DNA of 64,000 bases from an uncultured SAR86 cluster bacterium (GCA_902579195.1 CACHFV010000001.1:9089-73088); one strand, 5' to 3'. Shown: positions 5,510 to 27,662, numbered from the stretch's first letter. Notes: generated by a model from the sequence alone, not told the origin. Translations and numbers: made by a program.

Positions 5510-6281
5510 AATTGCCATTACAAACCAAAAAGGAGGTGTTGGAAAAACCACAACAGCAGTTAATCTTGCTGCCTCTCTCGCAAAAGCAAAAAGAAAAGTT
5601 CTGCTTATTGATATAGATCCACAAGGTAACGCAACATCTGCAGCCGGAGCTGACAAACACTCCGAAGCATCTTTATATGAGTATTTCGAAAATAAAGACG
5701 ATATTAAAGAATACATTCTGGAAGCCACAGGAGATTATAAAATAATTCCATCCAACACCAACCTAGTTGCAACAGAAAAAATTATTGAAAAAACCCCAAA
5801 CAGAGAAAAATTCTTCTCTAATAATTTAAAAAAAATTGAGAAAGGGTTTGATTATATAATCATTGATTGTCCGCCAGCCTTAAACCTGCTAACAATTAAT
5901 GCTATGGAGTATTGTAAAAACGTAATGGTTCCTGTTCAGTGTGAGTATTACGCCCTCGAAGGACTGGTGACCTTAAAACAAACAATTAAAGAGCTCAACC
6001 ACGCCCTCAAACTAAACATCAAAATAGTTGCCATTCTCAGAACAATGGCTGATTGGAGAAACAGGCTTACTAGAGAGGTATCAGACCAACTTGAAATACA
6101 CTTTAAAAAAGAAGTTTTAAATACAATTATTCCAAGAAACGTAAGGCTTGCCGAAGCACCAAGTTATGGCCAATCTATAGTTGATTATGATATAAAGTCT
6201 ATTGGAGCAGAAGCATTCCTAAGTCTCTCAGGTGAATTTATAAGGAAATTTGAAAATGCCAAAAAAAACATCTCTAAATAA
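5499..6281 (+). CDS. parA: chromosome partitioning ATPase ParA/Soj
   Basis: Deviant Walker [17 protein letters not shown] and the IIDCPP block; followed by parB. Confidence 0.94.
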
Positions 6282-7131
6282 AGGTCTTCAAGCACTTTTG
6301 GGTGACGTTGCTTCTCCAAAAACAACAAAAACAAAAACAAAAACAACAACAAAAAAGCCAACAACAGAAGCAAAAGACAAAAACGAAATTGCCCTCAACC
6401 AAATTAAAACAAACCAATACCAACCACGGCTTTCGTTTGATGAGAAAAAGCTGCAAGAGCTTGCAGAATCTATAAAAAAACACGGCGTGGTACAACCTAT
6501 ATTGGTTAGGGAGGCCGATAAAGGATACGAACTAATAGCTGGTGAAAGAAGAATGAGAGCGTCTAAGCTTGCAGGCCTAAAAAAAATACCAGCAGTTATT
6601 GCAAAAGTTTCAAACACCCAGTCTCTTGAAATAGCAATTTTAGAAAACGTACAAAGAGAAGACCTAAACCCATTAGAAGTTTCAAAAGGCTACCAAAGGC
6701 TAAAGAATGAGTTTGGTTACACCCAAGAACAGGTTGCAAAAAGCGTTGGAAAACCAAGAAGCTCTATTGCCAACTCATTAAGACTACTTTCTTTATCACC
6801 AAAAGCTCAAACGGAACTTGAAAGGGGAACAATTTCTGAGGGACATGCAAAAGTTCTTCTAGGAACCGATCCAGCCAAAGCAGAAGCGCTACTTCAAAGA
6901 ATACTTGCTGAAAAGCTTTCTGTAAGGGATTTAGAGAAACTGTCCCAACCCACCAAAACCACTTATAACAAAACCCAAAAAACACGAGACGAGCTTAATT
7001 TAGAATCAGCATTGAGCTCAAAATTGGGATCAAAAGTTACAATTGAAGACCAGGAAGGCAAAGGTAAAATGGTCATCAAATATTATTCTTATGATGAGTT
7101 GGATGGAATCATTGAGAAATTTTCCAACTAA
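6256..7131 (+). CDS. parB: chromosome partitioning protein ParB/Spo0J
   Basis: Track ORF 6250 (TTG); ATG 6256 is more likely. ParB box [12 protein letters not shown] and an HTH ([24 protein letters not shown]). Low-complexity K/T-rich N-terminal linker. Confidence 0.93.
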
Positions 7132-13682: not shown

Positions 13683-15041
13683 ATGGGATTAAGTATCGTA
13701 ATTCTTGCTGCCGGCGAAGGCAGAAGAATGAAAACAGACAAACCAAAACCTTTGGTCAATTTAGCTGACCTCCCGCTTGTACAATACCCACTAAATACAG
13801 CAAAAGCGCTCAAACCAGAACGCATAGTGCTAGTAACAGGTTATAAAAAAGATGAAGTAAAAAAATATGTGCTTGAAAACAATGCAGGTGATTTTATTTT
13901 TTGCGAACAAAAAGAAAGGCTTGGTACTGGACATGCTGTTAAACAAGCAGCACCCTATTTGCCCGATACCGGGAAAACTCTAGTCCTGTATGCAGATGTG
14001 CCTTTAATTACTACTGCCAGTCTTAACAAGCTTATTAAATCAGCACAGCGCAAGAAAATCTCAATTCTTACATCAAAAATAACTAAACCAAAAGGCTACG
14101 GCAGGATCATTAGAGACGAAAAAATGAACCCAACAAATATCAGAGAGGAAGCTGATGCATCAACGCAAGAAAAAACAATCAATGAAATTTTCACTGGCAT
14201 CATGATTGCTGAAAATGAATTTTTAAAGAATGGTTTGAAAGGGTTGGTTAGAAATAACAAAGCAGGAGAATACTATCTTACTGATCTAGTAGAGTATGCC
14301 AGTAAACGAAAGCTTCCAATTAGCTCAACAGAAGCAAAAGAACTTGAGGTATTTGGAGCAAATAATAAAAAAGAACTTGAAGGTCTTTACAGCGCTATGG
14401 TTGCATTGAATATAGATGCAGCAAAGAAAAAAGGAACATTTTTTAAAGATACATCGACCTGTTATGTGGAAGGCAACCTAAAAGTTGGAAAGGATGTCTC
14501 AATTGGCAACAATGTCACAATTAAGGGCAATGTGGTGCTTGGCAATGATGTCTCAATTGGCTCAAATGTAATTCTCTCCAACACAAAGATTGGATCTAAC
14601 TCTACCATCAAAGAATTTTGCTCAATTGAAGACTCAAAAATATCTGAAAATGTTGAGGTTGGACCATTTGCCAGACTTAGAAATGGTGCAGTGCTTGATA
14701 ATTCAGCAAAGATTGGAAATTTTGTTGAAGTGAAAAAGTCGCGTATAGGACAAAATGCAAAAGCCAACCATCATGCTTATATAGGAGACGCTGACATAGG
14801 TAAAAAGAGCAACATTGGAGCCGGCACTATCACTTGCAACTATGACGGCGAGAATAAACACAAAACTAAAATTGGTGACTCAGTCTTTATTGGCTCAAAC
14901 TCATCATTGGTTGCACCACTAAAAGTAGGCAAGAAGTCATATGTGGCAGCCGGCTCGGTTGTTACTTCTGATGTGCCTGCTGGGTCGTTAGCTTTTGGGC
15001 GCGCAAAGCAAAAAAATAAAATCAACTGGAAGAAAAAATAA
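13683..15041 (+). CDS. glmU: bifunctional UDP-GlcNAc pyrophosphorylase / GlcN-1-P acetyltransferase GlmU
   Basis: N-terminal ILAAGEGRRMK nucleotidyltransferase motif and C-terminal left-handed hexapeptide repeats (IGNNVTIKGNVVLGNDVSIGSNV...). Confidence 0.96.
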   Translation: MGLSIVILAAGEGRRMKTDKPKPLVNLADLPLVQYPLNTAKALKPERIVLVTGYKKDEVKKYVLENNAGDFIFCEQKERLGTGHAVKQAAPYLPDTGKTLVLYADVPLITTASLNKLIKSAQRKKISILTSKITKPKGYGRIIRDEKMNPTNIREEADASTQEKTINEIFTGIMIAENEFLKNGLKGLVRNNKAGEYYLTDLVEYASKRKLPISSTEAKELEVFGANNKKELEGLYSAMVALNIDAAKKKGTFFKDTSTCYVEGNLKVGKDVSIGNNVTIKGNVVLGNDVSIGSNVILSNTKIGSNSTIKEFCSIEDSKISENVEVGPFARLRNGAVLDNSAKIGNFVEVKKSRIGQNAKANHHAYIGDADIGKKSNIGAGTITCNYDGENKHKTKIGDSVFIGSNSSLVAPLKVGKKSYVAAGSVVTSDVPAGSLAFGRAKQKNKINWKKK

Positions 15042-16864
15042 TGTGTGGCATAGTTGGCGGCGTTACAGAAAGAAACATAGTGCCCATTCTCTTAGAAGGT
15101 CTTCATAGGCTTGAGTATCGTGGTTATGATTCTGCAGGCATAGCATACAGAGCAGAAGAAAACGTTTCATTGGTAAAAAGTCTTGGCAGAGTTCACGACC
15201 TAGAAAAGAAACTCGACAAAAAAGCTACAAGCAATATTGGAATTGCTCATACTAGATGGGCAACACATGGCATACCGTCAGAAAAAAATGCACACCCACA
15301 CGTATCGAACAAAAACATTTATGTTGCGCACAACGGCATTATTGAAAATCATGAAGATTTAAAATCTGAGTTGAAAAGTGAAGGATTTAAACTCTACTCA
15401 CAAACCGACACAGAAGTGATTGGCCACCTTATAGAGTTCTACAAACAACGTGGTATGGATTTTGATTCAAGCGTTATGAGAGCAATCTCTCGGCTAAAAG
15501 GAGCTTATGCTCTCGCTGTCATAGATAAAAACGAGCCTGAGACACTTATAGGCGTTCGCCAAAGCAGTCCTTTGGTTATTGGTGAGGGTTTTGATGAGAA
15601 CTTTCTGGCATCCGACATTATGGCGCTATCCCCAGTTACAAATAAATTCAAATTCTTAGATGATGGTCAGGTTGTTTTCGTTACAAAAAACAAAATAAGT
15701 ATTAGCAGCAAAGACGGCAGAGCTGCTAAAGTCCCCACAAAAGAAGTTGACTCCACTGCTTATACCAATGACCTGAATGGCTATAGCCATTTTATGGAAA
15801 AAGAAATATTTGAGCAACCAGAGTCTGTCCAAAAAGCTTTAGAAGGTAGAGTAACAAAAGACGGCACAAGAGAAGGCATTTTCGGTGCAGGTTTTGAAAA
15901 GAAATTAAAAAATATTGAAAATATTCAAATCGTAGCTTGTGGCACCAGTTATCACGCAGGCAGAATCTTTGAATATTGGTCACACAAATTTTTGGGCATT
16001 AACTGCCGGGTCGATTATGGTAGTGAATATCAGTATCAAGTACCTGTTAAAACAAAAAAAACATTACTAGTAACAATCTCACAATCAGGTGAAACAGCAG
16101 ATACCTTGGCTTCATTAAAATTTGCCAAAAAAACTGATGATCCCCTAACCCTTACTATCTGCAATGTAGCCAATAGCTCTCTTTGCCGAGAATCAGAATA
16201 TACGCTATTAACCAATGCTGGACCAGAGATAGGCGTTGCATCAACCAAAGCATTTGTCACCCAGCTAGCATGCTTAAACCTCTTGCTGTTAACACTAATG
16301 GGAGCTAAAGAAGCAAAACCAAGAGGCAGAAAAAATATTGCTGCGGCATTGCTTGAGCTGCCTAGCCAATTAGAAAAAACCCTAAAAATGACAGATACAT
16401 ACAAAGAAGCTGCCAAATTATTATTCAAAAGGCATAGCACGTTGTTCTTGGGCAGGGGCCTATATTTTCCAATTGCTCGAGAAGGTGCGCTGAAGCTCAA
16501 AGAAATTTCTTACATTCATGCTGAGGCCTATCCAGGCGGTGAGCTTAAGCATGGCCCCTTGGCATTAATCGATAAAAACATGCCAGTCATTGCTCTGGTT
16601 CCCGACAATGAGCACCTTGATAAGATCACATCAAACATTGCAGAAGTGGCAGCAAGAAAAGGCAAAGTCATCACTATTGGCCCTTTAAAGAAAACAACCC
16701 TAAATAAAGATGGTGGGCATATAAAGATCCCAAAAACACTTGATTTATTGAATCCAATTATTTGTGTGGTGCCGCTGCAGTTAATTTCTTATTATACAGC
16801 CCTATTGAAAGGCACCGATGTGGATAAACCTCGCAACCTGGCGAAAAGTGTGACTGTTGAATGA
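15041..16864 (+). CDS. glmS: glutamine--fructose-6-phosphate aminotransferase GlmS
   Basis: N-terminal nucleophile MCGIVG, two SIS domains (ISQSGETADT), and the family-typical C-terminus KSVTVE. Confidence 0.98.
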   Translation: MCGIVGGVTERNIVPILLEGLHRLEYRGYDSAGIAYRAEENVSLVKSLGRVHDLEKKLDKKATSNIGIAHTRWATHGIPSEKNAHPHVSNKNIYVAHNGIIENHEDLKSELKSEGFKLYSQTDTEVIGHLIEFYKQRGMDFDSSVMRAISRLKGAYALAVIDKNEPETLIGVRQSSPLVIGEGFDENFLASDIMALSPVTNKFKFLDDGQVVFVTKNKISISSKDGRAAKVPTKEVDSTAYTNDLNGYSHFMEKEIFEQPESVQKALEGRVTKDGTREGIFGAGFEKKLKNIENIQIVACGTSYHAGRIFEYWSHKFLGINCRVDYGSEYQYQVPVKTKKTLLVTISQSGETADTLASLKFAKKTDDPLTLTICNVANSSLCRESEYTLLTNAGPEIGVASTKAFVTQLACLNLLLLTLMGAKEAKPRGRKNIAAALLELPSQLEKTLKMTDTYKEAAKLLFKRHSTLFLGRGLYFPIAREGALKLKEISYIHAEAYPGGELKHGPLALIDKNMPVIALVPDNEHLDKITSNIAEVAARKGKVITIGPLKKTTLNKDGGHIKIPKTLDLLNPIICVVPLQLISYYTALLKGTDVDKPRNLAKSVTVE

Positions 16865-17304
16865 GAACTGCTAAACAACAACTTGGAGACTTTGGGGAAG
16901 AGTTAATTAGAAAAAAATTTAATTGTCCTAAATGCAAAAGAGCGAAAACTTTAAAAAAACTTCCACCAAACTTTAAGTGTGCTGACCTTGTATGTGATTT
17001 TTGTGGTTACTTAGCACAAGTTAAAACTCACAACGTAAAAGACATAAATAAATTCCCTAAAATGATTCTTGGAGCAGCATGGGGACCACAAAAGGAGAGA
17101 ATGGATGCTGGTATTTATTTCCCTCTTTATGTTGTTTTAAAGAGCGAAAAAAAATATTCAGTTTTTTATCTTTCATCAGACCTACAAACAGAGGAAATGT
17201 TCATTAAAAGAAAACCATTGTCTAGTTCTGCAAAAAGAGCAGGATGGCAGGGTTACTACTTTGACGGAGAAATGATGAAGGATTTAATTACTAGGTTAAT
17301 ATGA
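16861..17304 (+). CDS. DpnI-like PD-(D/E)XK nuclease homolog, catalytic domain only (no winged-helix domain)
   Basis: 147 aa; its ATG overlaps the glmS stop (ATGA). CPKC...CADLVCDFCGYLAQVK and IKRKPLSSSAKRAGWQGYYF align with my recollection of DpnI (CPNC...VADFYCNHCSEEFELK and QRKPLAPTARRAGWIGCNI). Only ~60% of DpnI length. Confidence 0.6.
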   Translation: MRTAKQQLGDFGEELIRKKFNCPKCKRAKTLKKLPPNFKCADLVCDFCGYLAQVKTHNVKDINKFPKMILGAAWGPQKERMDAGIYFPLYVVLKSEKKYSVFYLSSDLQTEEMFIKRKPLSSSAKRAGWQGYYFDGEMMKDLITRLI

Positions 17305-17349
17305 ATATAGGTTGGGATAAGAACACTCTGTTACCGTAGAATGAATAAA
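17301..17349 (+). repeat. glmS-flank junction element, copy 1
   Basis: ATGAATATAGGTTGGGATAAGAACACTCTGTTACCGTAGAATGAATAAA. The TGA of the leading ATGA is the stop of the DpnI-like ORF. The core ACACTCTGTTACCGTAGAAT is shared with copies 2-5. Confidence 0.75.
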
Positions 17350-17499
17350 TTAATACAAATTATTAACTCGCCATTTTGGGCAGCAGGAATATTAACAGTA
17401 ATTTTGTTAACAACGGGTGACTATAAATGGTGGTTATTCGGACTGTATGTTTTGTTTGCCTTTTTTTGCAAACTTTATATTAAAAACAATGAACAATGA
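17341..17499 (+). CDS. small membrane protein (52 aa), hypothetical
   Basis: Below the track cut-off. MNKLIQIINSPFWAAGILTVILLTTGDYKWWLFGLYVLFAFFCKLYIKNNEQ has two hydrophobic helices. Its N-terminus resembles the 48-aa ORF at 20633. Its stop is the ATGA that opens junction copy 2. Confidence 0.4.
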   Translation: MNKLIQIINSPFWAAGILTVILLTTGDYKWWLFGLYVLFAFFCKLYIKNNEQ

Positions 17500-17541
17500 G
17501 AAACCTTGCTACGGACACTCCGTTACTGTAGAGTAGATTTG
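17496..17541 (+). repeat. glmS-flank junction element, copy 2
   Basis: ATGAGAAACCTTGCTACGGACACTCCGTTACTGTAGAGTAGATTTG. Contains TTGCTA-N17-TAGAGT (promoter-like) and ends ~27 nt before the ATG of the serine hydrolase gene. Confidence 0.75.
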
Positions 17542-17567
17542 AACAAAGAATTAGATTGCCAGCGTCA

Positions 17568-18746
17568 ATGAATTTTAAGTTATTTATCATACCGTTAACG
17601 GTTATTTTCTTGATCAGTATTTTTTATGGCGACAAGAATTCCAAGATAAATTCTCTTCTTGGTTTGAGTCTTACACCTGACCAAATCGATCAGTTCCTTG
17701 ATAAAGAAATGACCACTTTAAAAATACCAGGATTATCTATTGCCATTATTAATGATAATGAAATTGTTTATCACAGAGTGAAAGGTTTTTCTGATGTAGA
17801 GAAAGAAGTTCCTGTTGATAATAAGTCAATATTTGAAGGCGCATCTATTTCTAAATCTGTCTTTGGATTCTTTGTGATGACTTTTGTTGAAGATGGTCTG
17901 ATTGAATTAGACAAACCGCTTTATGAGTATTTGCCTAATCCTGATATTGAGTACGATAAAAGGTATGAAAAAATAACGGCAAGAATGGTTCTTTCGCATC
18001 GATCTGGATTTCCAAATTGGCGTGATGATTATCCTGAGAAAAAGTTGTTTATCCAGTTTGAACCAGGTACTGAGTACCACTATTCAGGAGAGGCATACCA
18101 ATACTTAGCAGAAGTATTGAAGGAAATTCTAGGTACTAATTGGTTGGGTTTAGAAGAGGAGTTTCAGAAGAGAGTTGCTATACCTTTTGCTATGAAAAAT
18201 ACGAAATTTATTCAAGATGACTATATGAGGAGTCACAAAGTTCAACCTTATGATAATGAGGGAAACTGGATTAATAAGGATGAGATGCAATGGTGGAAAA
18301 GTCGAGAGTCCGTATTTGTTGCTCCAACAACCATTCATTCAGAAGCAATTGATTTTTCGAAGTGGATGTTAGCAATGATGAGTAATAGAGGATTATCAGA
18401 AAATTTATTCAATGAACTATTTAAATCACACTCTTTGGTTACGGACGGATTTTTAAAGGAAGAATATACATTAGGTTTTGCTAAACTTTCTGCTTTTGGT
18501 GTAGGCGAACTGTATGCTCATAGTGGAAACAACACGGGGTTTTCTTCATATTTTGCTTTTGATAAAGATAAGAAGTGGGGGTTGGTCTTTTTCACGAATT
18601 CTGAGTCTGGAACTCAATTAGCATTAAGTCTTATCTATGGTTTGCTGTTATTTGGTACTACACTAACTTCGATTTTTATTGGTTTTGCAGTTCTAATTAC
18701 TGTTATCTTATTTCTCGCGCTCAAGCACCAATTATTGAAAAATTAG
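17568..18746 (+). CDS. serine hydrolase, class C beta-lactamase/PBP-like, with C-terminal membrane anchor
   Basis: Track ORF 17556 (TTG); ATG 17568 gives the MNFKLFIIPLTVIFLISIF signal. S-x-x-K active site (GASISKSV), YSGEAY, HSGNNTG, and C-terminal TM segments. Confidence 0.75.
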   Translation: MNFKLFIIPLTVIFLISIFYGDKNSKINSLLGLSLTPDQIDQFLDKEMTTLKIPGLSIAIINDNEIVYHRVKGFSDVEKEVPVDNKSIFEGASISKSVFGFFVMTFVEDGLIELDKPLYEYLPNPDIEYDKRYEKITARMVLSHRSGFPNWRDDYPEKKLFIQFEPGTEYHYSGEAYQYLAEVLKEILGTNWLGLEEEFQKRVAIPFAMKNTKFIQDDYMRSHKVQPYDNEGNWINKDEMQWWKSRESVFVAPTTIHSEAIDFSKWMLAMMSNRGLSENLFNELFKSHSLVTDGFLKEEYTLGFAKLSAFGVGELYAHSGNNTGFSSYFAFDKDKKWGLVFFTNSESGTQLALSLIYGLLLFGTTLTSIFIGFAVLITVILFLALKHQLLKN

Positions 18747-18798
18747 ATGGAACAAAAATACATTAAGTTTTACAAAACTTTTCATAAAAAGTATAAAA

Positions 18799-18850
18799 AT
18801 GACGAAAATCTTATTCTCTGTTCAAATACACTCTGTAACTGTCGAATAAA
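18799..18850 (+). repeat. glmS-flank junction element, copy 3 (with internal insertion)
   Basis: ATGACGAAAATCTTATTCTCTGTTCAAATACACTCTGTAACTGTCGAATAAA. Same 5' ATGA-GAAA and same core ACACTCTGTAACTGTCGAAT, but an extra ~10 nt and no TTGCTA. Confidence 0.6.
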
Positions 18851-18911
18851 CAATGATAGAAGCAATAAAAAAGTTTATTAAAAATGATTATTTGGTGTCT
18901 CGGTCATTCCC

Positions 18912-19076
18912 TTGGACAGTGAACTTAACTACCTTCTTTTTTTATTTTTAGTTTTTATAGTTCCACTTTTTTTTCAAGACCAAACAACAAAACAAACACT
19001 ACCATGGGTGTTTTTAATAATATGGGGAACATATTATTTTTTCTTAAGGAAAAAACTTTTAAGCAAAATTAAATGA
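18912..19076 (+). CDS. possible small membrane protein (54 aa, TTG start) or remnant of a frameshifted gene
   Basis: Open frame ...LNYLLFLFLVFIVPLFFQDQTTKQTLPWVFLIIWGTYYFFLRKKLLSKIK with two hydrophobic helices. Its TGA (19074-19076) lies in the ATGA that opens junction copy 4. A 32-aa ATG ORF (18853-18951) in another frame ends in a T-run, so a frameshift is possible. Confidence 0.3.
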   Translation: MDSELNYLLFLFLVFIVPLFFQDQTTKQTLPWVFLIIWGTYYFFLRKKLLSKIK

Positions 19077-19114
19077 TTAATGTTGCTACTGATACTCGGT
19101 TACTGTTGAATAAA
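19073..19114 (+). repeat. glmS-flank junction element, copy 4
   Basis: ATGATTAATGTTGCTACTGATACTCGGTTACTGTTGAATAAA. About 32/42 identical to copy 2. Contains TTGCTA-N17-TTGAAT. Confidence 0.75.
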
Positions 19115-19240
19115 TCTGAATGCCAATGTGTAGAGAACTTCAAAAAAATGATACCTTATGACAACCTGATATTGATATAGTTGAATCTACCTTTAGATAT
19201 ATAAAGGATAAAGTAATCCTCAAAGCAGAAGTAAATAATA

Positions 19241-19363
19241 ATGGTACAAGAAATGATTGAATTGTTGTTCTGGAGCTTAATGGCGGTAACATGGATGGCC
19301 GTCGGCATGCATGTAGCAAAAGAATTTGTCAGGTTTGCTAATAGAGAAGATAATCAAAATTGA
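19241..19363 (+). CDS. possible small membrane peptide (40 aa)
   Basis: MVQEMIELLFWSLMAVTWMAVGMHVAKEFVRFANREDNQN has one hydrophobic helix. The stop lies 1 nt before the ATG of the next ORF. No homology recognised. Confidence 0.25.
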   Translation: MVQEMIELLFWSLMAVTWMAVGMHVAKEFVRFANREDNQN

Positions 19364-19364
19364 T

Positions 19365-19763
19365 ATGAAAAAACCCAGCCTATTCAGAAGGACAGTGATG
19401 ACAATTGTAAGTGCATGGAGAAGGGTGATGGATGTTAAATATAATCCATTAAAGTACGTGCCAGATCCAAGTTTACAAGCTTATTTCATGTTGGTGTTGT
19501 TTGTTATGTGGAGCGTATTCTTTGGTTTTCTAGCAGCAAATTACCTAGGGTGGTTTGGGTACAATACACTTGCTAGTCTAATCATACATATTGGCATATT
19601 AGTGCCACTTGCATTTACCAATGCAGTCTTTGTAGATGCAGAAAGAGATGGTGCCCAATGGCTTAAGGAATGGAAAGAAGAACAATCAAGATATAAGCTG
19701 GTGGCCAATAGACTAAAAGCCAAAAACTTTGTTATTTGGAATCCAAACAAGAAATCAAAATAG
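19365..19763 (+). CDS. hypothetical membrane protein (132 aa)
   Basis: Track ORF 19326 (TTG); ATG 19365 (MKKPSLFRR...) is preferred. Two or three hydrophobic helices (YFMLVLFVMWSVFFGFLAANYL, LASLIIHIGILVPLAF). No family recognised. Confidence 0.5.
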   Translation: MKKPSLFRRTVMTIVSAWRRVMDVKYNPLKYVPDPSLQAYFMLVLFVMWSVFFGFLAANYLGWFGYNTLASLIIHIGILVPLAFTNAVFVDAERDGAQWLKEWKEEQSRYKLVANRLKAKNFVIWNPNKKSK

Positions 19764-19800
19764 AAACATTGCTATAGATACTCTGCAAATGTAAAAATTA
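19760..19800 (+). repeat. glmS-flank junction element, copy 5 (divergent)
   Basis: ATAGAAACATTGCTATAGATACTCTGCAAATGTAAAAATTA. The TAG of the leading ATAG is the stop of the preceding ORF. Keeps GAAAC-TTGCTA-GATACTCTG; the 3' half is degenerate. Confidence 0.6.
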
Positions 19801-19816
19801 GTCTTAGGACTTATTA

Positions 19817-20104
19817 ATGGAAATAAATTGGGTTATTTTAGGCTGGCTAATCGACATGCTGCTTAATGGCTTTGTGTGGCTTATCATCGCAGTACTTGGC
19901 CTGTCATTAATTGATGTGACTGATAAGTGGACAAGAAAAGCTCTTAAATTAATGGATAAAGCTGATATATGGATAAGAAAATTTGTAGAAAGCTTATTTG
20001 AATGGGTTCAAAAGAAGAATCTTAAAATAATCGCTAGCATTATTTTGTTAATGATCCTTGGTATTCTTGCTCAACTAGAAATAATACCTAAGCTGATAAC
20101 TTAA
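19817..20104 (+). CDS. hypothetical membrane protein (95 aa)
   Basis: ATG start with N- and C-terminal hydrophobic helices (WVILGWLIDMLLNGFVWLIIAVLGLSLI; IIASIILLMILGILA). No family recognised. Confidence 0.5.
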   Translation: MEINWVILGWLIDMLLNGFVWLIIAVLGLSLIDVTDKWTRKALKLMDKADIWIRKFVESLFEWVQKKNLKIIASIILLMILGILAQLEIIPKLIT

Positions 20105-20123
20105 TATAAAAGGACATAAAAAA

Positions 20124-20591
20124 ATGAACAATAAACTTATAACACTACTTCTTCTTTTAATAGTGCCCTCCATAATTGCTGATGATCAACAAACAGAAAT
20201 AGATGCTTTGCTTGATGGTCTTCACCAGGATGCACACGATGCTAATTTTAAGACTTACTTTGCTCGTTACACTTCGGATGCCATTTTTCTTGGCACAGAT
20301 AAGACAGAGCGCTGGACTATTGAAGAATTTAAAGCTTATGCTCAGCCTGCATTTGCGGATGGCAATGGCTGGACCTACTCAGTTGTTGAAAGGAACTGGG
20401 AGGGAAAAGGAGATATCCGTTGGTTTGATGAAATCCTTTTCAATGAACGACTTGGACATTGTCGGGGAACTGGTGTTGTGAAGAAAATTAATAACGAGTG
20501 GAAAATACTGCACTACGCTTTGACTATGCTAGTACCAAATGAAATAGCTGAAGAGGTTGGTGCTCAAACTAAAGAAGCTGACAAAGAGTAA
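20124..20591 (+). CDS. secreted NTF2-like (SnoaL/DUF4440-type) protein
   Basis: Signal peptide MNNKLITLLLLLIVPSIIA. Cone-fold-like pattern (LHQDAHDANFKTYFARYTSDAIFLGTDKTERW ... RGTGVVKKINNEWKILHYAL). Family call from recollection only. Confidence 0.5.
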   Translation: MNNKLITLLLLLIVPSIIADDQQTEIDALLDGLHQDAHDANFKTYFARYTSDAIFLGTDKTERWTIEEFKAYAQPAFADGNGWTYSVVERNWEGKGDIRWFDEILFNERLGHCRGTGVVKKINNEWKILHYALTMLVPNEIAEEVGAQTKEADKE

Positions 20592-20632
20592 GAGATTTAA
20601 TACAGTAATGAATATTAAATTTGGAGAAAAAA

Positions 20633-20779
20633 ATGAATAAAAAACTTATAGTTTTTCAATCTTTTATGTGGGCAGCTGCAATGCTTATTGTTGCAATCGT
20701 CGAGGAGAAACAATTTATTGTTTCATTGCTTGTTTTGTTAGCAACAGTCTCATCAATCAATCTTAAGAGGGCAAATTAA
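20633..20779 (+). CDS. small membrane protein (48 aa), paralog-like of the 17341 ORF
   Basis: GGAG 7 nt upstream of the ATG. MNKKLIVFQSFMWAAAMLIVAIVEEKQFIVSLLVLLATVSSINLKRAN shares MNK-LI...S..WAA..L.V with the ORF at 17341. Below the track cut-off. Confidence 0.45.
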   Translation: MNKKLIVFQSFMWAAAMLIVAIVEEKQFIVSLLVLLATVSSINLKRAN

Positions 20780-20780
20780 A

Positions 20781-21158
20781 ATGAAATTACATCAAGACAG
20801 TGGCGAAGTCACAGTAGTAATAGATGTTTCTTATTCAGATCCAATTGATGAGGTAAAAGATTTCATCCTGAACGAACAATGCCCATTCATTGAGAGCCAA
20901 ACAGATCAAGGCCTCATAAAATTTGAATGGTTTTTTGATGAGGCAACAAATACAGCCACTCTGCTAGAGGTATTTTCTAACGCAGAAGCTTGGGAAGAGC
21001 TTGCTAATAAAGTAATTGGCACTCCAGTTAACATTAAATTTGGCCAATTATTCAAAATCGAAAAAATGACAGTGCTCGGTGAAGCTACGGATAATCTTAA
21101 AGAGAAACTCCAAGCCATGAATCCAGTCTTGAAGCTTTATTCAGGTGGCATTAATTAA
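20781..21158 (+). CDS. hypothetical protein, possibly ABM/ferredoxin-like fold
   Basis: 125 aa, soluble. FEWFFDEATNTATLLEVFSNAEAWEEL resembles antibiotic-biosynthesis-monooxygenase-like domains. Weak, by-eye call. Confidence 0.45.
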   Translation: MKLHQDSGEVTVVIDVSYSDPIDEVKDFILNEQCPFIESQTDQGLIKFEWFFDEATNTATLLEVFSNAEAWEELANKVIGTPVNIKFGQLFKIEKMTVLGEATDNLKEKLQAMNPVLKLYSGGIN

Positions 21159-21192
21159 ATCAACATTTTTCTAGGCGCCAATTTTTACAAGA

Positions 21193-21417
21193 ATGAGAAA
21201 AATTTTAGGGTGGTCCTTATTAATAATCTCAATTATTTTAACTTTTGTAAGTATTGTAGTTGCATCCATGGGCGAGTTTCTTTATGGGGGCGGCATCTAT
21301 GTGGCCAGCCAAGTGACCTGGTACCCTGGTCTTGCATTACTAGGCCCAGAAATAATCCAAAAAAGCAAAGACCTATGGAATAATTTTGTAGAGAGATTTC
21401 GGTTTAATAAGAAATAA
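21193..21417 (+). CDS. hypothetical membrane protein (74 aa)
   Basis: N-terminal TM WSLLIISIILTFVSIVVA; no family recognised. Confidence 0.45.
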   Translation: MRKILGWSLLIISIILTFVSIVVASMGEFLYGGGIYVASQVTWYPGLALLGPEIIQKSKDLWNNFVERFRFNKK

Positions 21418-21659
21418 TGATTTGCATCAAAACACAAATACCAAAAGAAATATGCGACATAGATGATGAGTTGAAAGCAATCTATCACTCATAAGACACT
21501 GTGTGTATTTGAGTTTTCAGATACCGAGAAGACAGAAATGATTTTCTTGATGAAACAGTAGGGATGAAAAAAGAAGAAAGAGAAGCATATTATTTTGACA
21601 ACTATAATTAACTAAACTTCTAGATATTGGCGTACAATATTTTTGATTATTATGGGCTT

Positions 21660-22784
21660 ATGAAAAACACAATTTCCTTACTATTTTTTTTAACAACATC
21701 AATTTTGGCATTCAGTAATCCGCAATCTGAGACTCATGACTCAATGGAAAATATGCAGCATGACGAGCATATGATGCCCGAAGAGCACGGCATGGATCAT
21801 GCTGATCATATGATGATGCATGACCCATACCCAGTTGGTGTTATGGGCAGCTTACACCATGAAGGGTTTATGTTTTCTATTAAGCATGGGCGCATGACTA
21901 TGGAGGGCAATATATTTGATGGTGACAACATATCCACCGCAGATATTTTGCAAATGCCAAACCCATTGGGGAGCATGCCAGCAAATCTCTCAGTGGTTCC
22001 TGAGTCCATGGATATGAGCATGACTATGGTTGAGGGTATGTATGCTTTTTCTAAGAATATTACCTTTATGTTGATGGGTACATTTATGTCGAAAGATATG
22101 ACGCTTAATACATATGCACCGATGATGAATAGAGATCTGCTTGGTCAATTCAACACATCATCTTCAGACTTATCTGAATTAACATTTAGCACTCTGTTTA
22201 GAATTGCACAGCATGGGTCATCACAATGGCACGGTGAAGTTGCTTATCAAAAATCAGTGGGAGCAAATGACCAAAAAGATACCGTCTTAACACCTATGAA
22301 TATGATGATGGAAATGGTGTTGCCGTATGGCATGCAAAGCGGTGATGGTTCCTCTAGATTAATTCTTGGTATAACCAACACAAGAAAAATAAATAAAAAA
22401 CTTAGCTGGGGCAATCAGTTAAAAAGAAATGCTGTATTGAGCGAAAAAGACTGGTCGTATGGAAATCGTACAGAGCTGAACTCATGGCTTCAATATCCTC
22501 TTAACGAGACAGTCAGCCTGTCTTCAAGGCTTAAGTTTGTAAGCCAAGATGCAATTTCTGGTAATAGCCCATTAATTAGCGCTCCCGTCCAAACAGCAAA
22601 CCCAGCAAACTATGGTGGAGAAGAACTGCATCTGGGTTTTGGGGCAAACTTCAAATTCAATATTTTTCCAGGCGGCAATGATGTGCTGGGTATTGAAATC
22701 TTAACGCCGATGATACAAGACAAAAATAACCTGCAAATGAAAACAGACTACCAAGTAATTGTTGGGTACCAAAAAAGCTTTTAG
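21660..22784 (+). CDS. outer-membrane beta-barrel protein with Met/His-rich N-terminal tract
   Basis: Track ORF 21627; ATG 21660 gives the MKNTISLLFFLTTSILAFS signal. Mature N-terminus HDSMENMQHDEHMMPEEHGMDHADHMMMHD, alternating beta-strand pattern, C-terminal ...VGYQKSF (terminal Phe, typical of OMPs). Confidence 0.65.
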   Translation: MKNTISLLFFLTTSILAFSNPQSETHDSMENMQHDEHMMPEEHGMDHADHMMMHDPYPVGVMGSLHHEGFMFSIKHGRMTMEGNIFDGDNISTADILQMPNPLGSMPANLSVVPESMDMSMTMVEGMYAFSKNITFMLMGTFMSKDMTLNTYAPMMNRDLLGQFNTSSSDLSELTFSTLFRIAQHGSSQWHGEVAYQKSVGANDQKDTVLTPMNMMMEMVLPYGMQSGDGSSRLILGITNTRKINKKLSWGNQLKRNAVLSEKDWSYGNRTELNSWLQYPLNETVSLSSRLKFVSQDAISGNSPLISAPVQTANPANYGGEELHLGFGANFKFNIFPGGNDVLGIEILTPMIQDKNNLQMKTDYQVIVGYQKSF

Positions 22785-22792
22785 AGTTTCGA

Positions 22793-23152
22793 TTGAAAAA
22801 AATTAACCTTAAATCTAAATTTTCCAAGTTTAACGACCTCTGGTCACCAAAAGTTATTGCTGAGATGAATGATTATCAATTCAAGCTCGTTAAAATTAAA
22901 AATGATTTTACATGGCATGCACATGAAGACACAGATGAGGTATTTATTGTCATTGAGGGGAGTATGCAGATAGAGTTTGAAGATGAAACTATTGTGCTTA
23001 ATAAGGGTGAAATGTATGTCGTGCCGGCAGGCAAGCGCCATAAACCTTTCGCTCCCGAAGAAGCTAAAATCATGCTAGTTGAGCCAAAAGGAGTTGTTAA
23101 TACCGGCAATGAGATTAATGAGCTAACAGCTGAAAACGATCAGTGGATCTAA
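22793..23152 (+). CDS. cupin domain protein
   Basis: Cupin motifs WHAHEDTDEVFIVIEGSMQIEF and YVVPAGKRHKP; 119 aa; TTG start per the track. Confidence 0.7.
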   Translation: MKKINLKSKFSKFNDLWSPKVIAEMNDYQFKLVKIKNDFTWHAHEDTDEVFIVIEGSMQIEFEDETIVLNKGEMYVVPAGKRHKPFAPEEAKIMLVEPKGVVNTGNEINELTAENDQWI

Positions 23153-23158
23153 TGAGTG

Positions 23159-23374
23159 CTATTCTGGCAGAACAAACAAGTCTTCAACAGAGCATTTAAG
23201 CGTCTTGGCAATCTTTAATGCCAAAACCGTTGATGGCACATAAACACCATTTTCAATTGAGTTAATGCTTACCCTAGAAACCCCAGCTTTTTCGGAGAGT
23301 GCCTGCTGGGTTAAACCAGCAGACATACGGATAGTTTCTAAATTATTAAGCAGCTTCCTGTGATCTTTACCCAA
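23159..23374 (-). CDS. short XRE-family HTH transcriptional regulator
   Basis: LTQQALSEKAGVSRVSINSIENGVYVPSTVLALKIAKTLKCSVEDLF is a canonical Cro/C1-type HTH. 71 aa, second gene of a two-gene minus-strand operon. Confidence 0.85.
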   Translation of the reverse strand: MGKDHRKLLNNLETIRMSAGLTQQALSEKAGVSRVSINSIENGVYVPSTVLALKIAKTLKCSVEDLFVLPE

Positions 23375-23385
23375 AGAATACCTTC

Positions 23386-23916
23386 TTATCCTTTCTCAAA
23401 ATCTTCGACTGCTTTGTTAATCTCTTCACTTTCTCTTGGGTAAAGATAACCTGCAACAAGAAGTCCTACACCTATAGTGAAAACAAGGGCACCAACACCC
23501 ATTAAGATATCACCAAGAAAAAATATTCCAAAGAGAAACAAGCCTATTCCTGTAAATGCTGTGGTCACACCATCTTTTCTATAATCACGAGGGCTCTTTT
23601 TACCCTCTTTAAAGCTAGCCAATAAATCTTCAACAGCAGCAGGGTCCTCAACATTCTTGCTAACTTCAATCATGGCATCGTATCTGTCTTTCTTTTCCTT
23701 TGCTGAGAAGTATAAAGCTATGAAAACAATAATTATTGGCAGAAGCATGCCCATATACGGAATACCAACTCCTAAAATGCTTATGAGCGAGTCACCTGCG
23801 TGTGCTTGATTTATGCTGCTTTCAATTTCAACAGCTAAACCATCATCGGTGTTGATGTCTATGCTGAAATTTACAATAAACTCTTTGATTTCTTCTATTT
23901 GTTTTTTTAGATTCAT
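23386..23916 (-). CDS. hypothetical membrane protein co-transcribed with the XRE regulator
   Basis: 176 aa with three hydrophobic helices (GIPYMGMLLPIIIVFIALYF; AFTGIGLFLFGIFFLGDILM; GALVFTIGVGLLVAGYL). Its stop is 11 nt before the XRE start. Confidence 0.6.
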   Translation of the reverse strand: MNLKKQIEEIKEFIVNFSIDINTDDGLAVEIESSINQAHAGDSLISILGVGIPYMGMLLPIIIVFIALYFSAKEKKDRYDAMIEVSKNVEDPAAVEDLLASFKEGKKSPRDYRKDGVTTAFTGIGLFLFGIFFLGDILMGVGALVFTIGVGLLVAGYLYPRESEEINKAVEDFEKG

Positions 23917-25635: not shown

Positions 25636-26724
25636 ATGAGAATTGGGGTTCCTGCCGAAATAAAAAATAATGAATACAGAGTTGGGTTAACGCCTGAATC
25701 AGTGCATGAGCTTTGTTCTGTGGGTCTCGAAGTCAACATTCAGTCACAGGCTGGTAGCGCTATTGGTTTCACAGATCAGGATTATCAACAGTCTGGAGCA
25801 ACAATCTTATTCTCTGCATCAGATGTTTATGAGTCATCAGATCTAATCGTTAAAGTAAAGGAACCTCTGCCAGAAGAATTTAAGTTTTTATCACCAGACA
25901 AAACGCTTTTTACATACCTACACTTAGCTGGCAACAAATCACAAGCAGTGGAACTAATGAATACCGGAGTAACAGGTATCGCTTATGAAACCGTCACTTC
26001 TTCAGACGGATCATTGCCACTTTTGGCTCCAATGAGCAAAATAGCAGGCCAAATTAGTGTTGTGGTTGGACAATATTTCCTACTCAAACCCAATGGAGGT
26101 ATTGGAACTATTCTTGGTTCAGTTGACAGCATTGAGCGACGAGTTGTTACTGTGATTGGGGCAGGCGTTGCTGGCATGGAAGCAATTAAAAAAGCAATTG
26201 CAAATGACGCACACTTAAAAATATTAGATCTCTCACCAAAAAGATTGGACGAACTCAAAGAACAATTCGGCACCAACAACATTGAGTATATTTTATCGGA
26301 TAGCAGCTCAATATCTTCTGCTCTGGAGGCATCAGATTTAGTGATTGGCTCTGTGTACGTTCTGGGCAAAGAAGCGCCTAAAGTTATTACCGAAGAAATG
26401 ATTAAAAAGATGAAATCAGGCAGCGTGTTGGTTGATATTTCAATTGATCAAGGGGGGTGTATTGAGAGCAGCAAGCCGACTACGCACGACGCTCCTGTCT
26501 TTAATAAACATGGTGTTGTGCACTATTGTGTAACCAATATGCCCGGCGCAGTACCACTCACAGCAACCCTTGCTTTAAATAACGCAACACTACCCTATGT
26601 AAAAGCATTGGCCACTCAAGGTGTTGATGAGGCTCTTAAAAATGATAGCCACCTATTTAATGGGTTAAATATTAAAAATGGTGAAGTTGTTAACCCTGCT
26701 GTAAAAGAAGCACTTGAATCATGA
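25636..26724 (+). CDS. ald: alanine dehydrogenase
   Basis: MRIGVPAEIKNNEYRVGLTPESV N-terminus and Rossmann GAGVAGMEA. Length ~362 aa. Track start 25633 is GTG; ATG at 25636. Confidence 0.93.
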   Translation: MRIGVPAEIKNNEYRVGLTPESVHELCSVGLEVNIQSQAGSAIGFTDQDYQQSGATILFSASDVYESSDLIVKVKEPLPEEFKFLSPDKTLFTYLHLAGNKSQAVELMNTGVTGIAYETVTSSDGSLPLLAPMSKIAGQISVVVGQYFLLKPNGGIGTILGSVDSIERRVVTVIGAGVAGMEAIKKAIANDAHLKILDLSPKRLDELKEQFGTNNIEYILSDSSSISSALEASDLVIGSVYVLGKEAPKVITEEMIKKMKSGSVLVDISIDQGGCIESSKPTTHDAPVFNKHGVVHYCVTNMPGAVPLTATLALNNATLPYVKALATQGVDEALKNDSHLFNGLNIKNGEVVNPAVKEALES

Positions 26725-27662
26725 ATAGACTTTTATTTTATGCACCATTGGGCTTGTCATTTTTATTTTTCATTGTCTATATATTGCTAGCTGCGAATAC
26801 CAACTTCATCTCTGTTGAGGCTGGATACGCAATTGGCGAGGTCTCTAGGTGGTGTGAAAGAATTAGTGATAGCTATTTTAGAGAACAGTCAAACGCATTA
26901 AGCAATATAGGCTTTATGACTACTGGATTAATCATGTTCTGGATACTAGCACGTGAAACAAGAATTAGTGGAAGTAGATTTCATGGTAGCGCCCCCACAG
27001 CCATTCTTTATGCAGCAACAGCATGGTTTTTAGGTCCAGGATCACTTTTAATGCATGGGACACATACAACATGGGGCCAATGGGCAGATTGGTTAAGTAT
27101 GATTATGTATATTTCTATTCCCTGGCTAGTAAATTTATTCACAACTAAAAACTGGAGAGAAAGCTTGTTCATTAAGACTTACTTGATCATAGTTGGGCTC
27201 TATGGTTTTCTTAGTTGGCACCTAGGAACAGGTTTGGGAATAAATTTTAACTTCTGGTTTTTATCCATAGCTTTGTGGATCATCACAGAAGTTCTGCAAA
27301 GTCTCTACACCCCAATCTTAAGAATTTTATCGGGTTTTGTCGGCATAGGTGTTATGTCAGTATTTGGTGTCTTTCCAAATGAGATCTTTACAAATCTAGA
27401 TCAATATTGGTGGATTGCTCTTTTTTGGATACCTGCAATTTTTATTAATAAAAAAAGCGATTATTCAAAAAGATATACCCCTTGGTTTTGGCTAGGTGTT
27501 TTCTTTTATGTATCCGCATTTATTATTTGGCTGCAAGGCTACCCAGAGCAACCACTTTGCAATCCTGATTCAATTTTTCAGCCACATGCAATGTGGCATT
27601 TACTATCTGCGTGCGCAACATTCTCATTTTTCTTTTTCTTTAGAACAACAAAATTGAGGTAG
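26721..27662 (+). CDS. ceramidase-family (alkaline ceramidase-like) integral membrane hydrolase
   Basis: 7-TM protein. WCE...SNALSNIGFM, LMHGTHTTWGQWADWLSM and QPHAMWHLLSA parallel the WCE..N..SN, FH.T...D.L.M and FHAWWH motifs of alkaline ceramidases as I recall them. Confidence 0.6.
   Translation: MNRLLFYAPLGLSFLFFIVYILLAANTNFISVEAGYAIGEVSRWCERISDSYFREQSNALSNIGFMTTGLIMFWILARETRISGSRFHGSAPTAILYAATAWFLGPGSLLMHGTHTTWGQWADWLSMIMYISIPWLVNLFTTKNWRESLFIKTYLIIVGLYGFLSWHLGTGLGINFNFWFLSIALWIITEVLQSLYTPILRILSGFVGIGVMSVFGVFPNEIFTNLDQYWWIALFWIPAIFINKKSDYSKRYTPWFWLGVFFYVSAFIIWLQGYPEQPLCNPDSIFQPHAMWHLLSACATFSFFFFFRTTKLR

Follow-up and report, generated by a model that had tools for sequence, protein, structure and literature searches.

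The window analysed here, a stretch of 64,000 nucleotides (nt) from an uncultured SAR86 cluster bacterium, contains an array of small open reading frames (ORFs) directly behind glmS; around the array the window is origin-proximal, with the gene order yidC...atp operon-glmU-glmS. A preliminary description had recognised five direct copies of a short element that separates these ORFs, had assigned it to no known class of site, and had offered three explanations, namely that the copies are junctions of a cassette-acquisition system, a portable promoter or an operator. All five were found on the plus strand where they had been placed, copies 1–4 as strong matches and copy 5 as a weak one; copies 2 and 4, which had been said to be similar over their full length, are 78% identical over 49 nt. 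It also holds that the element abuts the stop codon of the preceding ORF, this being the TGA of the DpnI-like ORF (17304) and of the ORFs of 52 and 54 amino acids (aa) (17499 and 19076), and the TAG of the 132-aa ORF (19763). Throughout, the window is compared with related loci and contigs from a genome collection and from metagenomes, which carry L numbers (L001 etc.).

The repeat core and the end of glmS

The core of the element can be followed with the 13-mer ACTCYGTWACYGT, which occurs without mismatch at 17325, 17517 and 18830, with one mismatch at 19094 and with two at 19780. A 35-nt position weight matrix (PWM) made from the five copies scores them at 31–46 bits, and nothing elsewhere in the window, on either strand, reaches 12. 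The core reads (AYAC) TCN GTW ACN GTN GAR TAR, and its variable positions are third codon positions. In all of the SAR86 relatives compared, glmS ends ...N-L-A-K-S-V-T-V-E-stop, coded AAR TCN/AGY GTN ACN GTN GAR TAR; the last codons of the window gene are ...AAA AGT GTG ACT GTT GAA TGA (K-S-V-T-V-E-stop). The motif ACNGTNGARTRR has exactly five matches in the 64 kb, both strands included, and these are the glmS end and copies 1–4. The true glmS 3′ end (16847–16864) is therefore the sixth, and the founding, copy of the repeat. The earlier statement that the window holds no further copy is correct insofar as the PWM finds none beyond the five, but it passed over the end of glmS itself. The gene stays whole (607 aa), with S-V-T-V-E-stop repeated at junctions 1–4.

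The element profile also matches the true glmS end in 13 related loci. Counts of instances and loci, here and below, pool the genome collection and the metagenome matches listed, the latter from an exact-pattern scan that gave at least 120 contigs. In this collection, which was seeded by a pattern that fixed most core positions and left the stop codon, the arms and the breakpoints free, the stop codon is kept at the glmS stop position in 177 of 192 instances, where about 22% would be expected from base composition, and 159 of the 192 translate as SVTVE*.

The profile scan of related genomes and metagenomes that the preliminary description had proposed places the element 3′ of glmS, in arrays of uniform orientation. 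Within the genome collection it is co-oriented 3′ of glmS in L003, L005, L006, L008, L009, L013, L021 and L037, most of which are labelled SAR86; the contigs from the metagenome scan are mostly low-GC and marine with an extended match, such low-GC marine contigs numbering more than 100, and many have 2–6 copies. At least 131 loci carry elements and at least 51 of them two or more, never in mixed orientation, with a median spacing of 756 nt in the same-orientation arrays. Where a contig includes glmS, the elements are co-oriented with it and downstream (27 of 27). Of the 83 inter-element units, 77 have their longest ORF in the orientation of glmS, and this ORF takes up about 72% of the unit. 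A scan of viral contigs gave 23 matches, of which those in three related contigs score well; they lie within a 541-aa phage ORF, on the opposite strand, and a reading of them as phage attP was dropped as chance. It should be noted that assemblies break at the glmS locus: for 29 of 176 elements the contig ends no more than 150 nt away, where about 7% would be expected (L104–L223 and L002, L003, L007, L012, L023), and several SAR86 genome contigs stop a few hundred bases past glmS.

Anatomy of the site

The complete site is about 50 bp long and forms an imperfect palindrome around an invariant, non-palindromic central AC, the order being a left arm of ~23 nt, ACTC, the central AC, GAGT or GAAT, and a right arm of ~30 nt. 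Left arms fall into type D (ACTGTTCAAAAAC, n=60), type A (GGTGGGTTAAGAAC, n=37) and type B/C (CTTGCTACGGAT, n=37). Within each type, identity is down to background beyond about −25, so that unrelated cassettes share the arm as a portable module. Conservation of the main right arm (TAGTTTTGAACAGTGAATTAA, n=67) ends at about +40, and the reverse complement of this arm matches left-arm type D. The consensus halves mirror each other in an inner (ACTC/GAGT) and an outer (ACTGTT/AACAGT) motif, at positions 5–8, 12–16 and 18–20 from the centre. Arm types combine freely across junctions, and there is no left-right covariation within copies. Folding of the five copies as single-stranded DNA, on both strands, gave no significant hairpin (z-scores −1.8 to +1.4), and a search of 16500–22000 against Rfam gave nothing at E <= 1. 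A consensus mirror without covariation, fold, Rfam match or promoter call is the pattern of a double-strand protein-binding site, which is what the copies are predicted to be. Published sites of large serine recombinases (LSRs) have a pseudo-palindromic attP with 25-bp half-sites and a central dinucleotide (PMC3783163). One may speculate that in left-arm types A–C the glmS ‘N-L-A’ motif is present ~5 nt further out (4–6 nt in by-eye counts), which would correspond to the spacing rule that separates attP from attB.

A portable promoter, in which TTGCTA-N17-TNGART would drive each downstream ORF, had been suggested since three window copies have TTGCTA 17 nt before TAGAGT, TTGAAT or TAAAAA, and the elements do lie just 5′ of ORFs. 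The supposed −10, TNGART, is however made of the Val-Glu-stop codons of the glmS end. Its position 2 is free (G 70, C 43, T 30, A 23), whereas position 2 (A) is the best conserved in the −10 boxes of sigma-70. Moreover, the TTGCTA ‘−35’ is limited to one of the three left-arm types, 20 of the 192 copies, window copy 1 among them, have the ATG of the next ORF inside the ‘−10’ (GAATGA), a promoter scan calls none of the five window copies, and no copy is 5′ of any other gene elsewhere in the 64 kb. We therefore regard a promoter family as very improbable. The operator for a shared regulator finds no support either: the dyad TACTC...GAATA on which it was based is the inner inverted repeat of the recombinase half-sites, and has neither covariation nor a hairpin. 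Two further candidates were rejected, a Shine-Dalgarno role of the GGAG in the right half, from which the downstream start codons are at inconsistent distances, and an RNA element, for which there is no Rfam match at E <= 1 (16500–22000) and no stem covariation.

A second right-arm type, with a terminator-like hairpin (...TTTAAnCCCGCATTCTGCGGGGTTT), is present right after glmS in L003 and L021 and at several metagenome junctions; it is thus found both directly past real glmS stops and past internal junctions.

Linkage to large serine recombinases

In L108, L141, L153, L166 and L173 a motif screen found ORFs of 544–590 aa that end 10–50 nt before the element, on the same strand. Pfam analysis of the genes of L108, L127, L141, L153, L166 and L173 identifies the Resolvase and Recombinase domains in all six and Zn_ribbon_recom in four. 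Sites are also found behind an LSR in L206, L224, L227, L231 and L235, at distances of up to about 110 nt, and LSR homologues on longer contigs (GC 0.30 to 0.60) all have ...AC NGT NGA R TRA (T-V-E-stop) 12–110 nt past the gene. Pfam or precomputed annotation supports the domain assignment of the site-linked LSRs in L108, L127, L141, L153, L166, L173, L224, L227, L229, L231 and L235, where the gene and the site, 10–110 nt past it, are on the same strand.

The most instructive arrangement is that of L229/L230, where the order is glmS, an 8-kb island with an Eco57I/BsuBI-type restriction-modification system, the LSR as last island gene, and chromosomal genes. In L229, attL reads glmS...GTGTT AC AGTGGAGTAGGTTTCCTATAAC and attR, 8 kb away, GTTATAGGAAACTCATTCCGTT AC AGTGGAATAATTC. 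Arms P and P′ form an inverted repeat, and it was the island that donated the present glmS stop. In L141 and L173 the site has a palindromic, attP-like form, with 18/24 and 20/24 arm matches, respectively. The element can no longer be said to be of no known class, given a core that is glmS C-terminal coding sequence, a palindrome of ~50 bp, a position behind LSR genes and the attL/attR pair of L229. L127 has two att-containing repeats, one immediately past the LSR gene and the other 2.5 kb further on, and L227 has an LSR remnant 2 kb 3′ of its LSR; both fit tandem accretion and decay. The contigs of P0007, P0011, P0013 and P0046 begin or break inside the LSR island, the glmS side not being reached.

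The LSR family comprises 776 proteins at E <= 1e-10. Its matches to LSRs of solved structure (SPbeta, A118, TP901-1) are only at E ~1e-10, and identity to plasmid-borne LSRs is below 30%. Full-text searches, with subscription-only literature outside their scope, found no published description of a glmS-linked LSR, of glmS att sites or of a SAR86 cassette array; the clade, whose natural target would be the glmS end, is apparently undescribed.

An array of small co-oriented, mostly single-ORF cassettes, each closed by a conserved site, would also be expected of an integron-type attC cluster without its integrase, in which folded single-strand sites are the substrate of a tyrosine integrase. The absence of a hairpin on either strand and of covariation between halves, and a site of about 50 bp that is conserved in sequence rather than in structure, argue against this, and the preliminary description was right to set attC aside, the R″/R′ cores being absent too. 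The linked recombinase is, in addition, a serine enzyme; a motif screen found no tyrosine-recombinase ORF in the window or beside the SAR86 arrays, although a Pfam scan of every window ORF was not part of it. An attC cluster is hardly credible on these grounds.

Cassette turnover and the point of exchange

The comparison of glmS-downstream loci between relatives, which had been proposed at the outset, indicates that units of ORF plus element are gained, lost and reordered. The window has the 132-aa ORF pair, then a 95-aa ORF, then SnoaL, whereas L008, L005 and L169 have the 95-aa ORF, the pair and SnoaL; in L017 and L165 the 95-aa ORF likewise precedes the 132-aa pair, opposite to the window. 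The window glmS is 96–99% identical to that of L001 over most of its 3′ two-thirds, and similarity collapses immediately past GTGAC; in L001 two different cassettes precede the homologue of the cassette 5 start. Divergence right at the glmS end means that turnover is greatest beside glmS.

To locate the breakpoints, pairs were compared among the 214 junctions detected at E <= 0.01, with positions counted from the A of ACTC. Pairs with upstream homology only are alike through +7 and near random from +10 to +13; those with downstream homology only have the opposite pattern, and the change is sharper among pairs at least 88% identical. A break between +7 and +10 places the switch at the invariant AC, +8/+9. 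A direct example is provided by L134 and L110, which differ by one cassette of 276 bp, without a recombinase gene, between flanks that are 97.4% and 99.5% identical. Here identity switches exactly at the AC; the adjoining bases are mismatched, and longer identical runs (TACTC, GTGGA) are nearby. ORF and element together are thus modules with breakpoints inside the element, and strands would be exchanged at the 2-bp AC. The first of the original suggestions, cassette-acquisition junctions, is in this respect borne out, as order varies between genomes and the breaks fall inside the element.

It might be argued that the repeats arose and shuffle without any dedicated recombinase, pseudo-glmS ends serving as substrates for homologous or microhomology-based exchange once LSR elements had seeded the first copies. 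Neither the window nor the SAR86 flanks yielded a recombinase, the conserved core of 18–20 nt offers microhomology, and serial entry is awkward under the directionality of canonical LSRs (PMC3783163). Nevertheless, L134 and L110 exchanged at two base pairs with the longer identical runs alongside, and the breakpoint statistics peak between +7 and +10. Moreover, hundreds of unrelated cassettes have kept left arms of ~23 nt and right arms of ~30 nt that have no coding role in glmS, which argues for selection by a protein that reads them. Recombinase-free shuffling is accordingly improbable.

The same breakpoints bear on Tn7, for which the highly conserved glmS end is a safe landing site. TnsD reads the glmS C-terminal coding region at attTn7, the very sequence copied here, and insertion by TnsABC+D takes place about 25 bp downstream of glmS with a 5-bp target duplication. 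The shared locus could be taken to mean that Tn7-family transposition made the copies, as duplicates of the TnsD target or decoys for it. However, the module boundaries fall within the core, in its Thr codon, and not at a distance of ~25 bp downstream, and the end of glmS is duplicated, which transposition does not do; what is seen is the pattern of conservative recombination. A repeat search detected no Tn7 end repeats, and no tns genes were seen, no profile search having been aimed at them. The boundaries and the duplicated gene end exclude transposition as such, and we give the Tn7-like reading next to no weight.

A proposed mechanism and its limits

The five elements are very probably junctions between LSR attachment sites, and the array they belong to would be a tandem island of cassettes at the 3′ end of glmS. 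In the window four of the junctions are intact and one is decayed; with the true end of glmS they delimit five small, recombinase-less cassettes. It is envisaged that serial conservative site-specific recombination into the glmS 3′ end leaves one junction per event. A cassette would enter at the AC in the last Thr codon of glmS, its right half, AC NGT NGA R TAR (Thr-Val-Glu-stop), rebuilding the glmS end, while a pseudo-glmS end would be left at the far side of the cassette. As an essential gene comes to end in the right half, this half has to code for T-V-E-stop, and the left half mirrors the right because the enzyme reads a palindrome. The enzyme would be an LSR of the clade whose members carry exactly such a site just behind their own gene. 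Since no recombinase was found in the window, we infer that the SAR86 cassettes, which lack one, are moved in trans by such an LSR; this is supported by the precise gain or loss of 276 bp and with the conservation of non-coding arms. New cassettes would enter at the glmS-proximal end.

Several observations weigh against this scheme. The preliminary description had noted that no recombinase is present, and although sites in related loci adjoin an LSR gene, this remains true of the window, where tblastn with the LSRs and recombinase motif screens found neither an LSR nor a remnant. In the SAR86 genome loci no recombinase gene was found over the 10 kb that follow glmS, and the only DNA shared between the LSR contigs and SAR86 is the att site, none of these contigs being shown as SAR86. 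The main right arm is not mirrored by left-arm types A and B/C. L134/L110 is the only clean single-cassette insertion or deletion pair, and the conservation of the core is in part ascertainment, since the seeding pattern fixed most core positions. Finally, canonical LSRs recombine only attP with attB (PMC3783163), and repeated entry beside an existing cassette needs a permissive enzyme or another route.

A broader proposal is that a system based on serine-recombinase chemistry does the work of an integron in SAR86 and other marine bacteria. It would consist of hundreds of unrelated cassettes of 0.2–1.3 kb, mostly single-gene and recombinase-less, with a portable attP-like site of ~50 bp whose right half is the GlmS C-terminus; these would be captured serially at the AC and transcribed by read-through of glmS, while glmS-specific LSRs that reside on larger defence islands would act in trans to excise and re-insert them. 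Taken together, we would put these features at a little below an even chance. The LSRs would in that case have to accept hybrid sites, unlike canonical phage integrases.

Comparison with known systems

The closest analogue is the staphylococcal cassette chromosome (SCC/SCCmec) composite island at rlmH (orfX) in staphylococci, to which the glmS array is analogous without being a member. In SCC the Ccr LSR integrates in the rlmH 3′ end, direct repeats bound each unit, and recombinase-less units (psi-SCC) occur (PMC12648241). Common to both are LSR insertion in the 3′ end of a housekeeping gene that is preserved, direct repeats of the gene end around every unit, and units in tandem, some of them without a recombinase. 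The glmS array differs in its target, glmS and not rlmH, and in its host, a streamlined marine gammaproteobacterium. Its units have a median of 756 bp, go down to 192 bp and usually have one ORF, whereas SCC units measure 20–60 kb, and its short portable arms are found on hundreds of unrelated cassettes. The likeness is one of insertion mode and unit boundaries, not of Ccr sequence comparison, and the glmS-linked LSR has only distant matches to solved or plasmid-borne LSRs.

The att sites of phage LSRs (A118/LI, SPbeta SprA, phiC31, Bxb1) resemble the glmS sites in being about 50 bp and pseudo-palindromic, with half-sites of ~25 bp, an inner and an outer motif, a non-palindromic dinucleotide and hybrid attL/attR (PMC3783163). 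Related loci have a linked LSR gene, the palindrome, exchange at AC as read from the sequences and, in L229, hybrid attL/attR; in the window no linked gene was found. The glmS sites differ from phage att in that the right half-site also codes for the GlmS C-terminus and in that many cassettes are without an integrase. The arrays also imply recombination at sites other than plain attB, which canonical integrases avoid.

With integrons the array shares small, co-oriented, mostly single-ORF cassettes, a portable end site and turnover that is greatest by the anchor. It differs from the IntI system (attI × attC) in its serine chemistry and its double-strand, sequence-conserved palindrome; its anchor is the glmS stop-codon region and not attI, and no integrase gene is beside it. 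As regards membership of the integrons, or of the clusters of attC sites lacking integron-integrases (CALIN), there is no attC-type fold and no IntI with attI; the array is preceded by glmU and glmS, and GTTACNG, as read from the sequence, does not fit the attC consensus GTTRRRY. In the tycheposon-type islands of marine picocyanobacteria, serial integration at a tRNA end leaves partial tRNA copies in a hypervariable island. These resemble the glmS array in serial insertion at one gene end, partial copies and an abundant oligotrophic host, and differ in the tRNA target, the tyrosine recombinases and the kilobase-sized units, many with their own integrase.

The scheme accounts for a locus that is hypervariable and breaks assemblies, in a bacterial group that ranks among the most abundant in the surface ocean, and provides a concrete mechanism by which streamlined genomes may sample small accessory genes. 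An integron-like arrangement would apparently have been reached independently with a different recombinase family. The glmS end is conserved across bacteria and valued as the safe-harbour site of Tn7, so LSRs that target it may be useful for genome engineering.

Junctions and cassettes of the window

The features of the array are collected in Table 1; cassettes are bounded by central AC dinucleotides, with AA at the far end of cassette 5.

Table 1. Features at and behind glmS, with positions in the 64-kb window.
Feature	Position	Strand	Description
glmS	15041–16864	+	Anchor gene, 607 aa, from ORF list
attL-type junction	16830–16884	+	Left arm genuine glmS coding; central AC 16853–16854; motif match at 16853
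Cassette 1	16855–17334 (480 bp)	+	DpnI-like ORF 16861–17304 (Pfam DpnI, E = 1.8e-16)
Junction 1 (copy 1)	17310–17364	+	Left arm type A (GGTTGGGATAAGAAC); central AC 17333–17334
Cassette 2	17335–17526 (192 bp)	+	Hydrophobic 52-aa ORF 17341–17499
Junction 2 (copy 2)	17502–17556	+	Left arm type B (CCTTGCTACGGAC); central AC 17525–17526
Cassette 3	17527–18839 (1313 bp)	+	Beta-lactamase-fold ORF 17568–18746 (Pfam Beta-lactamase, E = 3.7e-47)
Junction 3 (copy 3)	18815–18869	+	Left arm type D-like (TCTGTTCAAATAC); central AC 18838–18839
Cassette 4	18840–19103 (264 bp)	+	Small membrane ORF in two pieces, 18853–18951 and 18912–19076
Junction 4 (copy 4)	19079–19133	+	Left arm type B (TGTTGCTACTGAT); central AC 19102–19103
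Cassette 5	19104–19789 (686 bp)	+	40-aa ORF 19241–19363; 132-aa ORF 19365–19763
Junction 5 (copy 5), decayed	19765–19819	+	Type-B left arm intact (CATTGCTATAGAT ACTC); AA for central AC, 19788–19789
Flexible island remainder	19817–23916		No recognisable junctions

The closest glmS proteins are those of L001 (95% identical) and of SAR86 genomes (71–76%). At the attL-type junction the right arm (TGTTGAATGA...) comes from cassette 1; glmS owes its last codons and its stop to this arm, which also provides the ATG of the DpnI-like ORF, overlapping that stop. The same geometry recurs at junction 1 (core ACTC TGTT AC CGTAGAATGA), where the next ORF has its ATG in overlap with the pseudo-stop TGA (GAATGA). 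The right arm of junction 2, TAGATTTGAACAAAGAATTA, belongs to the main type. About 100 nt 5′ of junction 3 are common to L146, L176 and L197, cassette 4 has a 90% identical copy in L008 (13974–14221), and the cassette start to the right of junction 4 is common to L001 (4868–4930). The two ORFs of cassette 4 (32 and 54 aa) are in different frames and overlap across a T run (about 18934–18951); they look like one small membrane-protein gene broken by a frameshift or a homopolymer sequencing error. Units homologous to cassette 5 are found in L165, L021, L008, L169, L005, L017, L138 and L004. Copy 5 is a decayed relic in which the central AC and the coding pattern have gone: its right half is no longer T-V-E-stop, and, at 31 bits by the PWM, it has no motif match and was missed by the nhmmer profile. 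In other 95-aa cassettes, homology with the window begins at 19793–19794, by junction 5.

Other genes of the islands

Besides the LSR, the islands of L108 (6755–7339), L166 (1924–2529), L224 (1388–1981) and L232 (4593–5192) have a small resolvase-type serine recombinase of 194–201 aa, with a Resolvase domain and, in the two scanned with Pfam, also a helix-turn-helix (HTH); it is divergent from and adjacent to the LSR in L108 and L166. The L141 contig of 6.3 kb repeats the first 35 residues of its LSR (gene 130–1791), 97% identical, at its end (6238–6342); this would mean that two related elements stand in tandem there, or else that the element is circular and its assembly ran on beyond the starting point. 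A Phage_integrase-family ORF of ~198 aa is directly 5′ of, and overlaps, the LSR in the P0098 contigs and in L235 (9412–10008), with a tandem pair in P0098’s contig; in L141 an ORF of 199 aa that looks similar by eye (3725–4324) is about 2 kb 3′ of the LSR. A conserved ORF of ~100 aa (MTFTVCIKTS...GYGYKRISYILYEKGY) with an HTH-like stretch adjoins att in L190 (1886–2197), L143 (1235–1531) and L145 (518–880), and may serve as an accessory or directionality factor. Past the site in L141 (1884–2180) and L153 (2140–2478) there are ORFs, of 98 and 112 aa, with a stretch that looks similar by eye.

Defence-type cargo is common in the glmS islands (L229 4165–8617, L227 8071–12595, L235 1365–6033, L108 7384–8409, and the window at 16861–17304). 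It includes an Eco57I/BsuBI-type restriction-modification system, TIR-SEFIR, AbiEii, ResIII with a methyltransferase, a Dam-type methylase-like ORF (by eye) and the DpnI-like ORF of the window.

The remainder of the flexible island in the window consists of the 95-aa ORF, SnoaL_3, a 52-aa ORF, ORFs of 125 and 74 aa, a decayed Cys-rich ORF (21417–21605), a 385-aa ORF, a cupin, and minus-strand ORFs of 71 and 176 aa (23159–23916), and these genes recur in other orders in array-bearing contigs. The Cys-rich ORF (MICIKTQIPKEICDIDDELKAIYHS...) is broken by in-frame stops. Its homologues in L006 (12216–12404) and L221 (1–177) have an att element directly 3′, unlike the window copy, so that a junction seems to have been lost there. 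Window ORFs at 26721–27662 and 30504–32675 have homologues 3′ of att elements in L109 and L170, and in L127, which suggests that the right border of the window island is probably between about 24 and 26.7 kb.

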